From Halioglobus sp. (lineage in GTDB: Bacteria > Pseudomonadota > Gammaproteobacteria > Pseudomonadales > Halieaceae), in contig JAXHMT010000002.1 of assembly GCA_034521205.1 (NCBI GenBank), forward strand, positions 37,896 to 101,895: DNA of 64,000 nucleotides. The letters run 5' to 3'. The translations under genes were made by a program, and so were the position numbers. How positions within the stretch are numbered: the stretch's first letter is position 1; each line of letters begins with the position of its first letter. Positions 9,149 to 15,632 of this stretch are shown here, one piece after another. Under the pieces are notes generated by a model that saw only the letters and a list, made by a program, of their open reading frames with translations, was not told the origin of the DNA and did not search any database.

Positions 9149-9922
9149 TCACGCCGGCGCGCGAGGGTGCAGGACCTTGGGTCTGTAGGTCATCAACCGG
9201 TCGGTCTCCTTCTTTACCACCTCGTAGCACTCGCAGCTGAGCTGTTCAAGTCTGGGCCGGTCCATAACCTCTATCTTGCCGCGCCTATAAGTGATGACGC
9301 CGAGTTTTTGTAGTTTGCCCGCCGCCTCGGTCACGCCCTCCCGGCGCACGCCGAGCATATTTGCGATCAGCTCCTGGGTCATGACCAGGTGGGGGCCTTC
9401 CAGGCGGTCAAGGGAAAGCAGCAGCCAGCGGCACAGTTGCTGGTCGATGTTATGGTGGCGATTGCAGACCGCGGTCTGGGCCATCTGGGTGATCAGTGAT
9501 TGGGTATAGCGCAACATCAAAAAGAGCAGTTCGCCGTGGCGGTTGAATTCCGCCTTCATTCGCTGTCCCGCCAATCGATAGGCGTATCCGGCACTTTGAA
9601 CAACGGTACGACTGGGCGTGCTTTCGCCACCCATGAACAGGGAAACACCCACAATGCCCTCTTTGCCCACCACCGAGATTTCCGCCGATTCGCCATTTTC
9701 CATTACATAGAGTAATGAGACGATGCTGTCGATGGGGAAATAGACATACCTCATGGTATCCCCGGATTCACAGATCACGTGGCCAAGGGGCAGGGGCACC
9801 AATTCAAGGAATGGGTAGATGCGCTCCTTTACCTCCGGGGACAACTCTCCCAGCAGGTGATTTTGCTCGGGACTCTGAGCGGTCTGTTGCCTCGAAGTGG
9901 CGGCCTGAGATGCTTGCGTCAT
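9149..9922 (-). CDS. Crp/Fnr family transcriptional regulator
   Basis: cNMP-binding-like domain (VYFPIDSIVSLLYVMENGESAEISVVGKEG) and HTH TQELIANMLGVRREGVTEAAGKLQ. Confidence 0.93.
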   Translation of the reverse strand: MTQASQAATSRQQTAQSPEQNHLLGELSPEVKERIYPFLELVPLPLGHVICESGDTMRYVYFPIDSIVSLLYVMENGESAEISVVGKEGIVGVSLFMGGESTPSRTVVQSAGYAYRLAGQRMKAEFNRHGELLFLMLRYTQSLITQMAQTAVCNRHHNIDQQLCRWLLLSLDRLEGPHLVMTQELIANMLGVRREGVTEAAGKLQKLGVITYRRGKIEVMDRPRLEQLSCECYEVVKKETDRLMTYRPKVLHPRAPA

Positions 9923-9967
9923 ATAAATCCCTGCTGACTGAAAGTTGGATAACGGTGTTCCTGCTCG

Positions 9968-10000
9968 GCACCTGATTCCGCACCTGATTCGGCACCTGTT
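9968..10000. repeat. 12-bp tandem repeat (GCACCTGATTCC) x2.7 in the regulator leader
   Basis: gcacctgattcc gcacctgattcg gcacctgtt read directly. Confidence 0.7.
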
Positions 10001-10067
10001 TACGACGGAACATAACGGCGGCACGCCAACCGCTCCGATAAATTATGTAGCAGTTTCGGCCGCTGTC

Positions 10068-10152
10068 TGTGCGATAACGCACATAGAGCCGATAACTTCG
10101 GGGCGCGGGGCGGAAGAAAACTGTTTGTCGACAATATGTGTCCTGACGTACA
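10068..10152. promoter_or_regulatory. Divergent CRP-like operators: TGTGCG-ATAA-CGCACA (10068-10083, faces the regulator) and TGTGTC-CTGA-CGTACA (10137-10152, faces the sugar transferase)
   Basis: Minus-strand CATAAT (10042-10047) 20 bp from the first; TACTCT (10174-10179) 21 bp from the second. Confidence 0.7.
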
Positions 10153-10189
10153 TACGCAAAAATTCTGGAGTTGTACTCTCCTTCCTCTG

Positions 10190-10876
10190 TTGATAGAGCC
10201 AACTCAGGCAGGAGCAATTCAACGTGCAGCAGGCGCAATTCAACGTGCAGCAGGCGCAATTCGAACGCCAGCCCGCAGGCGGCTTCGGCAAGAGAGCATT
10301 GGATATCGGCACGGCCTGGTCTGCCTGCCGGTCACCTGGCCGGTGATGTTGCTCGCCATTCTTGCGATCAAGATCGAGGATGGGGGCGGTGCCCCGGTGA
10401 TCTTGCGTCAGCGGCGTGTGGGTTTGCATGGAGCCGTGTTCAGCGTGATGAAGTTTCGCAGCATGGCGACCATTGCGAAAAGTGACGGCGAGGCGCGCTG
10501 GGCGATTGCAAATGATGCCAGGCTTACCCGGGTCGGGCAGCTTATCCGCAAATTGCATATTGATGAGCTGCCGCAGATTTTCAATCTATTAAGAGGGGAT
10601 ATGTCCCTCGTCGGCCCACATCCCGAGCGCCCCGAAATTGTCGGCGAACTGGCCAGGAAAATTCCCCAGGTCCACACACGCCACTGTGTCAAGCCCGGTA
10701 TAACCGGCTGGGCACAAATCAACTATCCTTATCGTGCATCAGTGGCTGATGCCAGAAACAAGTTCAAGTCTGATTTGTACTACGTGAAGAACCAGAGTCT
10801 GTATCTGGATTTCATGGTCTTGCTGCGGACCGTTAAATTGGCGCTGTTTGGCAAGCGAATACAGAAACAAGGGTAA
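10190..10876 (+). pseudogene. Polyprenyl-phosphate sugar-1-P transferase (Bac_transf, WcaJ/PssA-like), short form with an N-terminal frameshift
   Basis: KRALDI (10290-10307) is out of frame with QRRVG, KFRSM, TRVGQLIRKLHIDELPQ, GDMSLVGP.PERP, KPGITGWAQIN and DLYYVKN. Confidence 0.85.
10205..10267. repeat. 21-bp tandem repeat CAATTCAACGTGCAGCAGGCG (two full copies plus partials)
   Basis: Copies at 10215-10235 and 10236-10256, partial from 10257. Confidence 0.85.
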
Positions 10877-10888
10877 CGGTTTTCGCCG

Positions 10889-13456
10889 TCAGGATTTCGA
10901 GTCCTGCCGCAGGGTCTGCTCCAGTTTCTTGGTTGCGGTGATATCCAGCAAGGTAATGACCACCCCGTCAATCACATTGTCCAGCCTGCGATAGGGCATT
11001 ATCCTTACCGTGAACCAGCGGCCGTCTGTGGCCAGTATCTGCTTCTCCGAAAATACCAGGGTACGCAGGGTTTCCAGCGCATCACTATGCAGGTCCGGGT
11101 ACTGGAGATTGCTGGTAAGGTCACTGAGTGGCCGCCCCAGGTCGCTCTCCCGGACATTGATGATTTTTGTTGCCCGGTCAGTGTAGCGTCTGACGTTCAA
11201 GTCCTGATCCAGAAACAGAATTGCGATCTCGATGCTGTTGAGCAGGTTGCGCATGTCACTCTGGGCCAGCGCGAGATCATCCAGCTTGGACTGCATCTCT
11301 GCATTGATGGTTTGCAGCTCCTCGTTCATCGATTGCATTTCTTCCTTGGAGGTTGTGAGCTCCTCATTCGTGGATTGCAGCTCTTCGTTGGTAGATTGCA
11401 ATTCCTCGTTCGCGGACTGCAGTTCTTCCTTGGATGCGTGAGCTTCCTCACGCAGGCTCTGTATTTCGTCGCGGTATTGCTGGATCTCGTGTTCATGAGA
11501 GCTTGCCAGGGTTGTTTTCCCCTTTTTCCGTGCAACGTCCGCACTTGTCCGGGCGATATCGTGAAACACGATCATGCTCGTGCCGCGCGGGCTGTCCGGC
11601 GGTGCCAGCGCCTGTATCGTGATATCGACCTGCTGCCCGCCGCCGCCCGGTAACTGTACCTGCAGCCCGTGCAGATGTTGCGTTTCACCCTCCTTGGCCA
11701 ACTTCTTCAGGGCGGTACTGATCGGTATCTGCAGACTCTCACGCACCATTGCGTGGAGGTTCCAGTTGGCTTTCCCCGTAGCGGGCTCCAGGTACTTCCC
11801 CGTGCGACCGCTGATATAGAGAATGTCACCGTCCTGGTTGATGACGACCGCAGCGGGGGCATAGACCTGCAGCAGGACCTGATCGGCGGTCGCCTGCAGG
11901 TTATCGCTTAAGGGAGGGGTAGTGGCCATGGGTTGCTCCCTGGCTTTTTTTGACAGTGGTGGAAAGGAATTTAGCAGAAACTCCGTCTTGCCACTAAGGG
12001 TGCTATCCTGGCGTCGGTACAGGCGCAGTTTGGACTCCAGCGGCGCGAACAGCCGGGTGTGCTGCCCCACCGTTTCAGCAGTACCCAGCAGCAGCACTCC
12101 GCCCCGGCGCAGGCTGTAGTGAAACATCGGTATCAGGCGGCGCTGCAGGTTGGCATCGAAGTAAATGAGCAAATTGCGGCAGCAAATCATGTCGAGTTTG
12201 GTAAACGGCGGATCCAGTATCACATCCTGCTGGGCGAACAGCACCATGTCCCGAATGTCGCTGTTGATCTGGTAACTGCCGGTGTGGGCAGTGAAAAATC
12301 GCTCCAGCCGCTCTGTTGATACCTCGGCTTCGATCGCGGCGGGATAGCGCCCACGGCGGGCGGTATCTATGGCCTCCCGGCTAAGGTCTGTGGCAAAGAT
12401 CTGCAGGGAGAAATCCCGGAAACTGCTGTGCTGGCGGATCACCTCTTTGAAGCTTATCGCCAGCGAATAGGCCTCTTCACCCGTTGAGCAGCCGACCACC
12501 CAGGCCCGCAATCTTCGCAGCTCGCTGCGCTGGGCCAGCAACTCCGGCAGCGCGACCGTTGCCAGGTGCTCCCAGACCGCAGGGTCGCGGAAAAAGCTGG
12601 TCACGCCGATCAGCAGTTCCTTGAAGAGCAGGTCTATCTCCTGAGGGTTCGCCTGCAGATATTCTGCGTAGTCTTCAGGCGTGGCAATAGCATGGATGGC
12701 CATACGGCGTTCTATGCGCCGGTTCAGGGTGCTGCGCTTGTAGAGAGAAAAATCGTGCCGGGTTCTCTGCAGCAGCAGATCGAAGGTGGTCTGTAGTGGT
12801 TCGTGGTCTATTTCCTGATCCCGGGCGGGATAATTCGGGTCTCGAACATGGGCGATGTAGGCCAGAATTCGTGCCGGCAATTCCTCCGGCGGCGCCACGA
12901 TGTCACCGCACTCCGCGGCGATGGCGCTTTTGGGCATCGAGTCGAATTGCGCGGTATCCGGGCGCTGCACCACGGTTAAACCGCCGACAGCCCTGACTGC
13001 CTGCAGGCCCAGGGTGCCGTCGGAACCCATACCGGAAAGGACCACGGCGATGGCGCGCTCACCCAGTGCGCCCGCCAGGGAAGAGAACAGCACGTTGATT
13101 GGCAATTGCATGCCCCGGGGTTCCACGGGCGTCTCCAGTTGCAAGGTGCCGTGGCTTACGCTGAGTTCGGTATTGGGAGCGATGACGTAGACACAGTCGG
13201 GCTCTATGCGCATATTCTGGCGCGCCTCGCGCACCGGCATCGGGGTAGTCCGCTGTAGTAGCTCTGATAGCACTGTTTCGTGGGTGGGATCGAGATGCTG
13301 CACAACGATGTAAGCCATGCCGCTGTGCGCTGGAGTATTCCCGAGAAATGACTCCAGCGGCGCCAGGCCTCCGGCAGACGCGCCAATGCCAACAATGCGG
13401 GTCGCCGCGGATCGGGGTGTTGCGGGTGGTGAGTCGGCGGGTATCAGGGCAGCCAT
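10889..13456 (-). CDS. CheB methylesterase-CheR methyltransferase-PAS-coiled coil-PAS fusion, no kinase domain
   Basis: GASAGG/QHL/LSGMGSDG triad; TSFFRD, GCSTGEEAYS, CRNLLIYF; EELQSTN heptads; C-terminal PAS (GRPLSDL). Confidence 0.93.
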   Translation of the reverse strand: MAALIPADSPPATPRSAATRIVGIGASAGGLAPLESFLGNTPAHSGMAYIVVQHLDPTHETVLSELLQRTTPMPVREARQNMRIEPDCVYVIAPNTELSVSHGTLQLETPVEPRGMQLPINVLFSSLAGALGERAIAVVLSGMGSDGTLGLQAVRAVGGLTVVQRPDTAQFDSMPKSAIAAECGDIVAPPEELPARILAYIAHVRDPNYPARDQEIDHEPLQTTFDLLLQRTRHDFSLYKRSTLNRRIERRMAIHAIATPEDYAEYLQANPQEIDLLFKELLIGVTSFFRDPAVWEHLATVALPELLAQRSELRRLRAWVVGCSTGEEAYSLAISFKEVIRQHSSFRDFSLQIFATDLSREAIDTARRGRYPAAIEAEVSTERLERFFTAHTGSYQINSDIRDMVLFAQQDVILDPPFTKLDMICCRNLLIYFDANLQRRLIPMFHYSLRRGGVLLLGTAETVGQHTRLFAPLESKLRLYRRQDSTLSGKTEFLLNSFPPLSKKAREQPMATTPPLSDNLQATADQVLLQVYAPAAVVINQDGDILYISGRTGKYLEPATGKANWNLHAMVRESLQIPISTALKKLAKEGETQHLHGLQVQLPGGGGQQVDITIQALAPPDSPRGTSMIVFHDIARTSADVARKKGKTTLASSHEHEIQQYRDEIQSLREEAHASKEELQSANEELQSTNEELQSTNEELTTSKEEMQSMNEELQTINAEMQSKLDDLALAQSDMRNLLNSIEIAILFLDQDLNVRRYTDRATKIINVRESDLGRPLSDLTSNLQYPDLHSDALETLRTLVFSEKQILATDGRWFTVRIMPYRRLDNVIDGVVITLLDITATKKLEQTLRQDSKS

Positions 13457-13478: not shown

Positions 13479-14084
13479 TTAGCCGACACTCGCGCACTCA
13501 CAGCAGGCCAACAGCGTAAACCCGCTCCCGGGCAAGGCGGATGCCAGGAACTGCAAGGGTGGTCTGGCTCCGCTCGGGCCGGGTTGCCTTGGCACCGCGC
13601 AGGAAGCCCTGCCCCCATTATTTACTACACGCCGCAGCAAATCCCCCAGTAGGGGCCTGAATTCCGGTGTCAGGAGAGTGTCGATTCGGCGCCCCCCCAG
13701 GTCGATCCCGGCAACGCCAAAGAGCTCCGAGGCAGCGGGATTGCCCTCGATGACGATGCCATCGTGATCAAGGATAAAGTAGGCCAGGGGCGCGCATTCG
13801 TAAAGCGCCCGGTAGCGGCTGAGCTCTTCCACCATCGCCCGTTCATTGGCGGCAATCTCCTCGTTCTGCAGGTCCAGCTCCACCTGATGAACCTGTAATT
13901 CATGCAGGAACCTGAGGGCGTCGTCCGCGGTTTCGGGATTACCGGCCAAGCGGTGCAGCAGGCGCAGGGCATCCACACTCATTGCGCAGTGGGTTGTGGG
14001 GGGCGTTGTTCCCGCCGCCAGTTGCGCTTCTGCCTTGTCGCGCAATTGCGTATAGACAGCGGGTTCACTAATGGATGTCAACAT
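13479..14084 (-). CDS. Coiled-coil (HELQVHQVELDLQNEE) plus single PAS domain protein
   Basis: Signalling helix followed by RYRALYECAPLAYFILDHDGIVIEGNPAASELFG PAS; no output domain. Confidence 0.8.
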   Translation of the reverse strand: MLTSISEPAVYTQLRDKAEAQLAAGTTPPTTHCAMSVDALRLLHRLAGNPETADDALRFLHELQVHQVELDLQNEEIAANERAMVEELSRYRALYECAPLAYFILDHDGIVIEGNPAASELFGVAGIDLGGRRIDTLLTPEFRPLLGDLLRRVVNNGGRASCAVPRQPGPSGARPPLQFLASALPGSGFTLLACCECASVG

Positions 14085-14176: not shown

Positions 14177-14345
14177 GAAAGGGCCCTCTGGATGGCCATT
14201 GACGGATTCTATCCACGCTTGGCCATGCTCTCCAGCTATCTGCAGACCATGGCTAACTGTGGATACAGCCCCCTCGTCGCTATACAGCTCGCTCCCTGGC
14301 CAACTTTACGCCGAAGGGGGCGAGTAGTTATTACCTTCAGACTAA

Positions 14346-15545
14346 TCATGTGACCGTCCCGTATGCCACTGCCTGTTCCCGCTCTCGATGATAGAACTGG
14401 AAATTATTCCGACCCTGCCCCTTTGTCATGTACATGGCGGTATCCGCATTCTGCAGCAAGCTCATCGCATCTTGACCGTCCGCAGGGTAGGAGCTGATGC
14501 CGATACTCAAGCTTACATTCAGATCGTGACCGTCAATAACCCGAGGCCGTGTAAATTTGGCCAGCAACTTTTTAGCGACCTCAGCAGCATCCTCCATTTT
14601 CTCAACCTGGGGCAGCAGAATAACAAACTCATCCCCGCCGAGGCGACCAACGGTATCCGTGCCGCGCACGCAGGACACCATCTCCGCCGCTGCTTCCTGC
14701 AAAAGTTGATCGCCAACCGCATGACCACAGGAATCATTGATCTGCTTGAAATAATCCAGATCGAGAAAAAGCACAGCGACCTGCTTGCGGTTCCGCTTTG
14801 CCATGCCGATAGCCTGGGTCAGGCGCTCCATCAACAGCAGGCGGTTGGGCAAGCCAGTAAGACTGTCGTGCTGTGCAAGATAGCTCATATTATCTCTCAC
14901 ATGCCGGGATTCCTGCGCATCATGGAAGACTATGACGGCACCAGCCAGTTTTCCGTGTCGGTTGAGGATAGGCGCCGCCGAGTCCTCAATCGCAAGATCA
15001 CTGCCGTCATGGCGTATGAGTACGCTACCGAGTTCAAGCTCGACTATCCGGCCCTCGTTCATCGCCCGTTTCGACGGGCTGATTCGAGGCTTCCGGGTGG
15101 TACCGTCAACAATGGAAAAGACATCAGCTTCGGGACGTCCACATGCCTCTGCGCTGGCCCAGCCGGTCAGCTTTTCAGCAACCCTGTTGAGATAAATCAC
15201 GATTCCATCCGGGTCGGTAACCAATACGGCGTCGCCGATAGCGTTCAGCGTGATCTGCGCCATGTCGCCAAAGGACATCTCACTAAAGGCGGTCCTGGTC
15301 GTCTCATCATTGCAGTCTGTCTGAGTAGACAAGTTGCCCGTCCAGGTGCAGACGGGGTCCCCATTTCCTGCGGCACACCGGTAACGATGAACAGGGAAGA
15401 AAAGGCTCATCAGCCGATCGACGGGGCGACGCTCAATAGGGATCAGCGAGCTGTTACAACGCGGACATGCCGGCGTGGTAACGGCGGGAGCACTGCGGTT
15501 CCAAGCCCCACCCGTATGCTTTATAAGACTGTTTTTAGTTCCCAT
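14346..15545 (-). CDS. Diguanylate cyclase: N-terminal 4-Cys motif, PAS/PAC and GGDEF
   Basis: CPRC...RYRC...C; ITLNAIGDAVLVTD PAS; HDSLTGLPNR, FLDLDYFKQIND, RLGGDEF. Start codon uncertain. Confidence 0.92.
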   Translation of the reverse strand: MGTKNSLIKHTGGAWNRSAPAVTTPACPRCNSSLIPIERRPVDRLMSLFFPVHRYRCAAGNGDPVCTWTGNLSTQTDCNDETTRTAFSEMSFGDMAQITLNAIGDAVLVTDPDGIVIYLNRVAEKLTGWASAEACGRPEADVFSIVDGTTRKPRISPSKRAMNEGRIVELELGSVLIRHDGSDLAIEDSAAPILNRHGKLAGAVIVFHDAQESRHVRDNMSYLAQHDSLTGLPNRLLLMERLTQAIGMAKRNRKQVAVLFLDLDYFKQINDSCGHAVGDQLLQEAAAEMVSCVRGTDTVGRLGGDEFVILLPQVEKMEDAAEVAKKLLAKFTRPRVIDGHDLNVSLSIGISSYPADGQDAMSLLQNADTAMYMTKGQGRNNFQFYHREREQAVAYGTVT

Positions 15546-15579
15546 ATTCCAGATAATTTCAAGTAATCTTTGCTCAGTC

Positions 15580-15632
15580 TGTGCGAAAACACACATAAAG
15601 CCCCTGCGACCCGCTCAGTGCGCCGCCGAACC
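15580..15632. promoter_or_regulatory. Divergent CRP-like operators: TGTGCG-AAAA-CACACA (15580-15595, faces the DGC) and AGTGCG-CCGC-CGAACC (15617-15632, faces GlsB/YeaQ)
   Basis: Minus-strand AATTAT (15553-15558) and plus-strand TAAATT (15654-15659), each 21 bp away. Confidence 0.65.

Follow-up and report, generated by a model that had tools for sequence, protein, structure and literature searches.

A 64,000-nucleotide stretch of the genome of Halioglobus sp. (Halieaceae; assembly GCA_034521205.1, contig JAXHMT010000002.1, positions 37,896 to 101,895 of the forward strand), hereafter the window, contains at 10889..13456, on the minus strand, a gene coding for an 855-residue fusion of the methylesterase CheB, the methyltransferase CheR, a first PAS-like domain, a long glutamate-rich helix and a C-terminal PAS_10 domain. 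Comparative analyses of this protein (P0001, defined from the list of open reading frames (ORFs), its translation, Pfam matches and homologues) and of its relatives suggest, at what can be considered an even chance, that the tethered CheR and CheB modify the protein's own helix, by self-methylation, rather than a chemoreceptor. In a wider proposal, which can be placed a little below an even chance, CheB-CheR-helix-PAS_10 would represent a self-contained adaptation device, where multi-site methylation of its own coil (up to 7-14 Glu) would give cytoplasmic PAS sensors a chemotaxis-style memory, plugged into kinases, into enzymes of cyclic di-GMP (c-di-GMP) metabolism, or into a separate helix-PAS partner together with a cyclase and a CRP-like regulator. 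A previous reading of the DNA, made from the sequence only, had proposed a receptor-free adaptation module acting on its own coil or on that of the upstream PAS protein and feeding the diguanylate cyclase or the CRP-like regulator; the idea is consistent with every comparative test that was run and may be considered partly supported.

The textbook mechanism of sensory adaptation, reversible methylation of glutamate residues, is known almost solely from chemoreceptor arrays. The gene described here is in itself a normal member of a known and annotated family, and the mechanism proposed for it is a variation on known methylation-based adaptation. If true, however, methylation-based memory would also work in soluble PAS sensors governing kinases and the turnover of c-di-GMP, and it would extend to bacteria that neither swim nor have chemoreceptors; this would explain the retention of CheR and CheB in thousands of bacteria, including the non-motile Francisella adeliensis, which lacks both methyl-accepting chemotaxis proteins (MCPs) and CheW. 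As to scale, more than 18,000 clusters, defined at 50% identity, contain matches to the helix-PAS_10 module that accompanies the fusion.

The fusion protein and its glutamate heptads

The gene is a single open frame of 855 codons. Pfam searches identify a CheB methylesterase domain (CheB_methylest, PF01339) at residues 22-197 (12866..13393, minus strand; E 1.4e-54), followed by the S-adenosylmethionine (SAM)-dependent methyltransferase at residues 225-475 (12032..12784, minus strand), which is composed of CheR_N (PF03705; residues 225-271, E 2.1e-14) and CheR (PF01739; residues 285-475, E 1.3e-52), and by a PAS_10 domain (PF13596) at residues 735-840 (10937..11254, minus strand; E 3.2e-29). 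Unlike canonical CheB, which has an N-terminal receiver, the CheB part begins at residue 22 without any Response_reg match; among the NCBIfam CheB models, only the C-terminal halves match the fusion, with scores far under the cut-off. The Pfam search of the protein revealed no receiver, HisKA, HATPase or MCPsignal domain (for MCPsignal, PF00015, no match at E <= 0.01), in agreement with the sequence-only reading, according to which no kinase domain is present. The same reading had described the CheB triad and the CheR SAM motifs as intact, and both structure alignments and family conservation confirm it. Alignment to 1CHD and 3SFT locates the triad at S27 (in GASAGG), H54 (in QHL) and D146 (in GMGSDG), each at least 90% conserved among 52 family members; the CheR part can be aligned over its whole length with Bacillus subtilis CheR (5FTW), Pseudomonas aeruginosa CheR1 (5XLY) and Salmonella CheR (1AF7), and its motifs CSTGEE, ATD and CRN..IY, together with the basic, substrate-binding helix R246/R247/R250/R251, are invariant or almost invariant in the family alignment. 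Both enzyme domains retain their catalytic residues and are predicted to be active.

An AlphaFold2 model of the monomer, built on 52 family members (mean predicted local distance difference test score, pLDDT, 82), has a PAS-like fold at residues 519-634 (11555..11902, minus strand; PAS-type helix/strand pattern, pLDDT 75-91), an uninterrupted helix at residues 653-741 as assigned by DSSP (11234..11500, minus strand; pLDDT about 70-82) and then the PAS_10 domain at residues 744-838; residues 487-520 and 637-657 are disordered linkers. The helix, which is strictly linked to the CheR domain, is therefore modelled between two PAS domains. No solved structure is available for the helix-PAS_10 part, whose best match is the PAS domain of ThkA (3A0R), also the nearest solved relative of the PAS_10 domain.

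The 89-residue helix contains 18 Glu and has a net charge of -16. Its heptad core, residues 670-720, is found at 11297..11449 on the minus strand, as already indicated by the previous reading (about 11290-11440), and contains seven EE pairs at 7-residue spacing, with the consensus N-E-E-L-Q-S-T. Residues 670-726 read EEAHASK-EELQSAN-EELQSTN-EELQSTN-EELTTSK-EEMQSMN-EELQTIN-AEMQSKL, and in almost every heptad one core position ('d') is occupied by Leu and the other (putative 'a') by Asn. The candidate methyl-accepting residues are E671, E678, E685, E692, E699, E706 and E713, or the first Glu of each pair. The loose pattern [EQ][EQ]xx[ASTG][ASTG] has five heptad-consecutive matches in the helix, and the fusion is the sole ORF with at least three of them when all six frames of the whole genome are searched for ORFs of 100 or more amino acids (20,501 in total); in 20,000 composition-preserving shuffles of the helix, five consecutive matches never occurred and three occurred once. 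The 21-nt DNA units of the repeat share only 65% identity and diverge at synonymous sites, so that the repeat is old and has been maintained by selection at the protein level; the same differences rule out a recent DNA slippage as its origin. Pfam searches of residues 645-745 returned only generic coiled-coil families, all below the cut-off, and no MCPsignal. Since the helix is predicted to be continuous, it is probably a two-stranded parallel coil; an MCP-type hairpin with a turn at TTSK was also considered, and was ruled out by the single helix of the model.

The fusion is a typical representative of a very large and already annotated family of CheB/CheR fusions (KEGG K13924 / cheBR; Pfam CheB_methylest + CheR_N + CheR + PAS_10), having the same domain order and length and no structural difference from it. 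Indeed, all the traits of K13924-type proteins are present: a receiver-less N-terminal CheB, then CheR_N and CheR, a C-terminal PAS_10 after a helix of NEEL heptads, and close full-length homology. A word-indexed search with the fusion gave at least 8000 matches; the best homologues, from Haliea, Sedimenticola, Thiohalobacter, Halomonas, Marinobacter and others, are 70-87% identical with equal length and domain set, and full-length homologues at E 1e-150 to 1e-190 have an equal Pfam set. Their names are 'chemotaxis protein CheB' or 'two-component system, chemotaxis family, CheB/CheR fusion protein'; with the named fusion proteins of these five genera, identity is 60-87% and the invariant NEELQSTNEEL helix is shared. 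The helix and PAS_10 (residues 640-855) identify 18,378 clusters at 50% identity in an exhaustive HMMER search, and orthologues at least 70% identical in this module are found across Gamma- and Betaproteobacteria. Searches of the accessible full-text literature revealed neither a mechanism or substrate for CheB/CheR fusions nor any paper with the heptad sequence, and K13924/cheBR appears there only as an annotation label.

Conservation of the helix is extreme. Twelve orthologues, otherwise 70-87% identical, do not differ by a single letter in the 50-residue heptad core. Of the 57 columns that are invariant when 52 full-length sequences are aligned, 12 fall in residues 690-718, a density equal to that of the CheR active site. 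Over residues 677-720 of 141 representative clusters, the Asn of the heptad is conserved at 91-100%, the first Glu at 93-100%, the second Glu at 88-100% and the Leu (or Met) at 83-97%, position 707 being Met in 61% and Leu in 30%; Gln (93-98%) and Ser (82-97%) are conserved in five of the six core heptads, the fifth having T701 and T702 at these positions, and the last position is Thr, Ala or Ser. In a simple structural coiled coil the core positions are constrained and positions b, c, e and f are not. The conservation of b, c, e and f in the fusion is unexpected for such a coil, which argues that something reads the surface of the helix.

Linkage of the helix to CheB-CheR, with and without chemoreceptors

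To what extent the heptads belong to the enzymes or to PAS_10 can be seen in 400 gammaproteobacterial genomes searched with the module; 53 were positive, and all of the roughly 85 occurrences were scored for NEE[LM] heptads. When PAS_10 follows CheB-CheR in a single ORF (n=63), it is preceded by 2-7 heptads (median 4); when a CheB-CheR ORF lies directly upstream in a different frame (n=9), by 3-5; and when it follows CheR alone (n=2), by 2-3. Heptads thus precede PAS_10 in 74 of 74 cases where this domain comes after CheB-CheR or after CheR alone, the nine frameshifted copies included, whereas 0-1 heptads are found before seven of the eight domains that do not follow CheB-CheR (0, 0, 0, 0, 0, 0, 1 and 6). 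The lone unlinked copy with six heptads is on a 2.5-kb contig, where 45 nt separate the opening of its ORF from the end of the contig. The eight unlinked copies comprise five separate proteins, an N-truncated ORF on a short contig (L069), a 950-residue GGDEF-EAL neighbour of the Francisella fusion and the second PAS_10 of the Francisella fusion itself. This distribution indicates that the heptads track the enzymes rather than PAS_10.

The CheB-CheR-helix-PAS_10 cassette is inherited as a unit, and it is the only constant part across relatives. The outputs that it carries vary, being absent in the fusion of the window and consisting of a kinase-receiver or of GGDEF-EAL in others; like the outputs, the first PAS domain is dispensable, as it is kept in most relatives and missing from the Francisella protein.

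Genes that appear split into a CheB-CheR part and a separate helix-PAS_10 part were considered as natural variants and rejected, as out-of-frame junk C-termini, a C11 homopolymer and masked runs of N point to frameshifts or assembly errors. About one in seven family genes in draft and metagenome-assembled genomes is frameshifted between CheR and the helix, the C11 homopolymer marking one break and a masked run of N another (L012, L019, L024, L028, L032, L037, L045, L059, L066, L075, L079 and L088); these are most likely assembly errors or pseudogenes rather than natural splits.

The module is also found in genomes devoid of chemoreceptors. MCPsignal has no match in three of 52 module-positive Gammaproteobacteria genomes; in a phylum-wide sample, the same holds for 12 of the 75 genomes with the module. 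Intact fusions are present in 13-14 proteobacterial genomes without MCP. In the three gammaproteobacterial genomes a search for CheW was negative as well, and the fusion contains the only CheR domain. Among them is that of Francisella adeliensis (G231), a closed genome of 2.05 Mb in which searches detected neither MCP nor CheW; its fusion, AXA33788.1 (L005:2672-8440, minus strand; 1922 amino acids), is annotated as 'EAL domain-containing protein' and has the order CheB-CheR-helix-PAS_10-PAS(n)-GGDEF-EAL. Beside it a second protein of 950 amino acids is encoded, with the order PAS-PAS_10-GGDEF-EAL and a PAS_10 without heptads. In the second genome (G350) the fusion is CheB-CheR-PAS_10-PAS-HisKA-HATPase-REC, and the third (G384) has only a frameshifted copy. 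In each of twelve further MCP-less genomes a fusion with 2-7 heptads is present. Every fusion of the MCP-less genomes retains the CheR residues; in the twelve further genomes the CheB triad is intact in nine, has Asp replaced by Asn in two, and has an ambiguous N-terminus in one. Thus, the enzymes are maintained where no chemoreceptor exists, and some substrate must therefore be present. The two fusions with the Asp to Asn replacement (GSNGT; L171 and L174, from G452 and G760) have intact CheR residues and heptads and may be writer-only variants.

Proposed mechanism and alternative explanations

In the mechanism proposed, the fusion would dimerise through the helix, and the tethered CheR would write, and CheB erase, methyl esters on the Glu pairs, either in cis or between the two chains of the dimer. 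In this way, a helix that would be only marginally stable (Asn at 'a', Leu at 'd') could lose up to about 14 negative charges; its packing would be altered and, with it, the passage of signals between the two PAS domains, the outcome being a soluble, chemoreceptor-independent adaptation or memory device.

Precedents are available for modification outside the canonical receptor sites. In Bacillus cereus, the CheR-type methyltransferase RsbM has as its target the signalling helix of the hybrid sensor kinase RsbK (PMC4574943). As may be the case for the fusion, a CheR-family enzyme acts there on the helix that links sensor and output of a non-chemoreceptor sensor, tuning its output; unlike the fusion, RsbM is a separate protein with no paired esterase (PMC4574943), whereas in the fusion writer, eraser and presumed target, with 6-7 repeated and putatively modified sites, are united in one polypeptide. 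Salmonella CheR methylates PhoP at the consecutive acidic residues E8/D9 and E107/E108 (PMC8546571), thus providing a precedent for CheR activity on such residues in a protein that is not a chemoreceptor; that enzyme, however, is a canonical free CheR and its substrate is a response regulator, with neither a coiled coil nor a dedicated cassette. FrzCD, in turn, is methylated at non-consensus pairs (PMC2535941). Because of these three precedents, methylation of the helix appears chemically reasonable.

The previous reading had compared the coil with the methylation helix of MCPs. The fusion does share with MCP helices, such as those of Escherichia coli Tar and Tsr, Glu pairs seven residues apart, a helical and strongly acidic character, small residues at +4/+5 (EExxA-S/T in the receptors, EExxS-T in the fusion) and the pairing with CheR and CheB. 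The methylation-site consensus of MCPs is Glx-Glx-x-x-Ala-Ser/Thr, extended to [ASTG]2-xx-[EQ]2-xx-[ASTG]2. The resemblance holds for the five consecutive heptads that match the loose pattern; it does not extend to the strict consensus EExx[AS][ST], which is found in only two heptads, or to the 10-residue one, which is found in none.

This partial fit weighs against self-methylation, and so do several other observations. E/Q variation is common at chemoreceptor methylation sites; in the helix it was looked for as a hallmark of CheB/CheR sites and was not borne out, since interchange at the EE pairs is nearly absent, with Gln in at most nine of the 141 clusters and in the outer heptads only. 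Known CheR/CheB substrates are antiparallel four-helix bundles, whereas the monomer model predicts one continuous 89-residue helix without an MCP-like hairpin. Unlike MCPs, moreover, the fusion has no MCPsignal domain and has Asn in place of the hydrophobic residue before each EE; its enzymes are covalently attached instead of free, and no CheA/CheW array is involved. Other points on the same side are the Asn in place of the CheB Asp in two MCP-less genomes, and the fact that the Halioglobus genome does possess one MCP, with the fusion supplying its only CheR and its only CheB. Finally, the association of heptads and CheB-CheR could derive from common descent of one cassette and not from an enzyme-substrate relation; the unlinked PAS_10 copies may represent an older divergent branch, the correlation being one on related sequences.

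Some of these observations would be accounted for if the helix were a mere structural or signalling linker, invariant because, for instance, it packs on the PAS domains or on the enzymes, or forms a higher-order bundle, with CheB-CheR having other substrates or a non-catalytic role. In the model, the helix indeed looks like any continuous linker that joins two PAS domains, single NEEL-type heptads occur in many N-terminal helices of PAS proteins without CheB-CheR in cis, and both the lack of E/Q interchange and the incomplete fit to the receptor consensus speak for it. Such an explanation is nevertheless unlikely, as conservation of b, c, e and f at 90-100% over more than 100 clusters is not what a simple coil would show, the heptads decay where CheB-CheR is absent, and the catalytic residues are kept without chemoreceptors, the helix being the only element always inherited with the enzymes. 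A different target for the enzymes is offered by the protein encoded just upstream, PAS201 (13479..14084, minus strand; Pfam PAS_8/PAS_4), of 201 amino acids, with an N-terminal helix and a PAS domain, whose gene ends 22 nt before the ATG of the fusion. Its helix, or elsewhere that of helix-PAS-kinase or helix-PAS-GGDEF proteins, could be the main substrate, and the fusion's own helix a dimerisation rod, a docking site or a decoy; this is compatible with self-methylation, and as an account of the main substrate it seems doubtful. Of 80 orthologue loci, 64 have a PAS201 homologue directly upstream, encoded on the same strand as the fusion. The alignment of 51 PAS201 homologues and a scan of neighbour motifs identify a conserved helix motif at residues 58-80, FLHELQVHQVELDLQNEEIAANE (13845..13913, minus strand), in which LHELQVHQVELDLQ, conserved at 70-99%, is the most conserved part of the protein; the N-E-E-I that follows is variable (consensus H-E-Q-L), and the EE site alternates between EE and EQ among orthologues, as chemoreceptor sites often do. 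Proteins beside output-less fusions, be they PAS proteins, kinases or cyclases, likewise start with a helix of the type [HY]Q-x-EL-[ED]-x-Q-[NH]-E-[EQ]-[LI], often [HY]Q-x-EL-[ED]-x-Q-N-E-E-L, with one copy of the NEEL heptad (L009, L010, L013, L015, L017, L018 and L050, besides 13845-13913 of the window). However, the EE pair of PAS201 is only weakly conserved (30-70%), which also limits the proposal of the previous reading. Fusions with a kinase or GGDEF-EAL output of their own, like most fusions of MCP-less genomes, lack such a neighbour (present in 1 of 13), the enzymes and heptads being kept anyway.

The remaining explanation assigns to the fusion a classical role, namely to provide CheR and CheB activity in trans to a chemoreceptor, in the control of twitching. 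The previous reading had defined the fusion as an orphan, and for the window this is correct: no MCP, CheA or CheW is encoded there, the only MCPsignal and CheW matches of the genome being on contig C4 and the window on C2. For the genome as a whole the term is an overstatement. The genome (4.4 Mb, 94.8% complete) codes for exactly one MCPsignal protein, which is PilJ-like and 697 amino acids long, and for no CheR or CheB other than the fusion's. The gene is part of a Pil-Chp-type cluster with the order REC - CheW - MCP - Hpt - ChpA-like (C4:1078000-1088500 of G000; loci L001 and L002), to which the CheW domains of the genome are confined; its ChpA-like kinase has 1486 amino acids and the organization Hpt-HATPase-CheW-REC, and no CheR or CheB gene of the PilK/ChpB type is found in it. 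Against a supply in trans, PilK and ChpB are missing from many Pil-Chp clusters. In addition, the fusion gene is on a different contig, conserved beside PAS, GGDEF and CRP genes and not beside pil genes, its family is intact in the genomes without any MCP described above, and the PilJ-like signalling domain contains a single loose consensus site. Service to the PilJ-like receptor thus appears highly improbable, and self-methylation remains the preferred reading.

Conserved neighbours of the fusion gene

The 855-residue fusion has no output domain of its own, and it probably signals via the co-operonic PAS201 to a PAS-GGDEF diguanylate cyclase and then, via c-di-GMP or directly, to a regulator of the CRP family. 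The cyclase gene (14346..15596, minus strand; Pfam GGDEF, E 1.3e-52, and PAS) is located 261 nt upstream of PAS201, and its product shows the GGDEF motif, preceded at a distance of five residues by an RxxD site (RGTD I-site). Ahead of PAS-GGDEF, the cyclase has an N-terminal segment with four Cys (CPRC...C...C). The CRP/FNR-family regulator, with cNMP_binding and HTH_Crp_2 domains in Pfam, is coded at 9149..10024 on the minus strand, with an uncertain start codon.

The PAS201, cyclase and CRP-like genes are conserved neighbours of the fusion. Synteny was analysed in four long-flank loci of orthologues (G239, G374, G297 and G083, the last being Thiohalophilus thiocyanatoxydans) and in the 80 further loci already mentioned, which have 3-kb flanks. 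Each of the four long-flank loci has both a PAS201 homologue and a PAS-GGDEF cyclase, and three of them, L011 excepted, also have the CRP-family regulator. The PAS201 homologue adjoins the fusion gene in all four, upstream in three and downstream in L011, where the PAS201-like match just downstream of the fusion gene is contiguous with a GGDEF match; in L008 a second PAS201-like match also adjoins a downstream GGDEF. Among the 80 loci, a CRP-like gene lies within 3 kb of the fusion in 35.

Inside the 261-nt gap upstream of PAS201, a sigma-70-like promoter match is found at 14206-14234 on the minus strand. A Bac_transf gene, of the undecaprenyl-phosphate sugar transferase type, occupies 10136-10876 on the plus strand and is convergent with the 3' end of the fusion gene, the two stop codons being 12 nt apart. 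Between this gene and the divergent CRP-like gene, an imperfect palindrome, GCTGTCTGTGCG-N4-CGCACATAGAGC, is located at 10062-10089, and it was the only site confirmed in a search for palindromes near the operon promoters.

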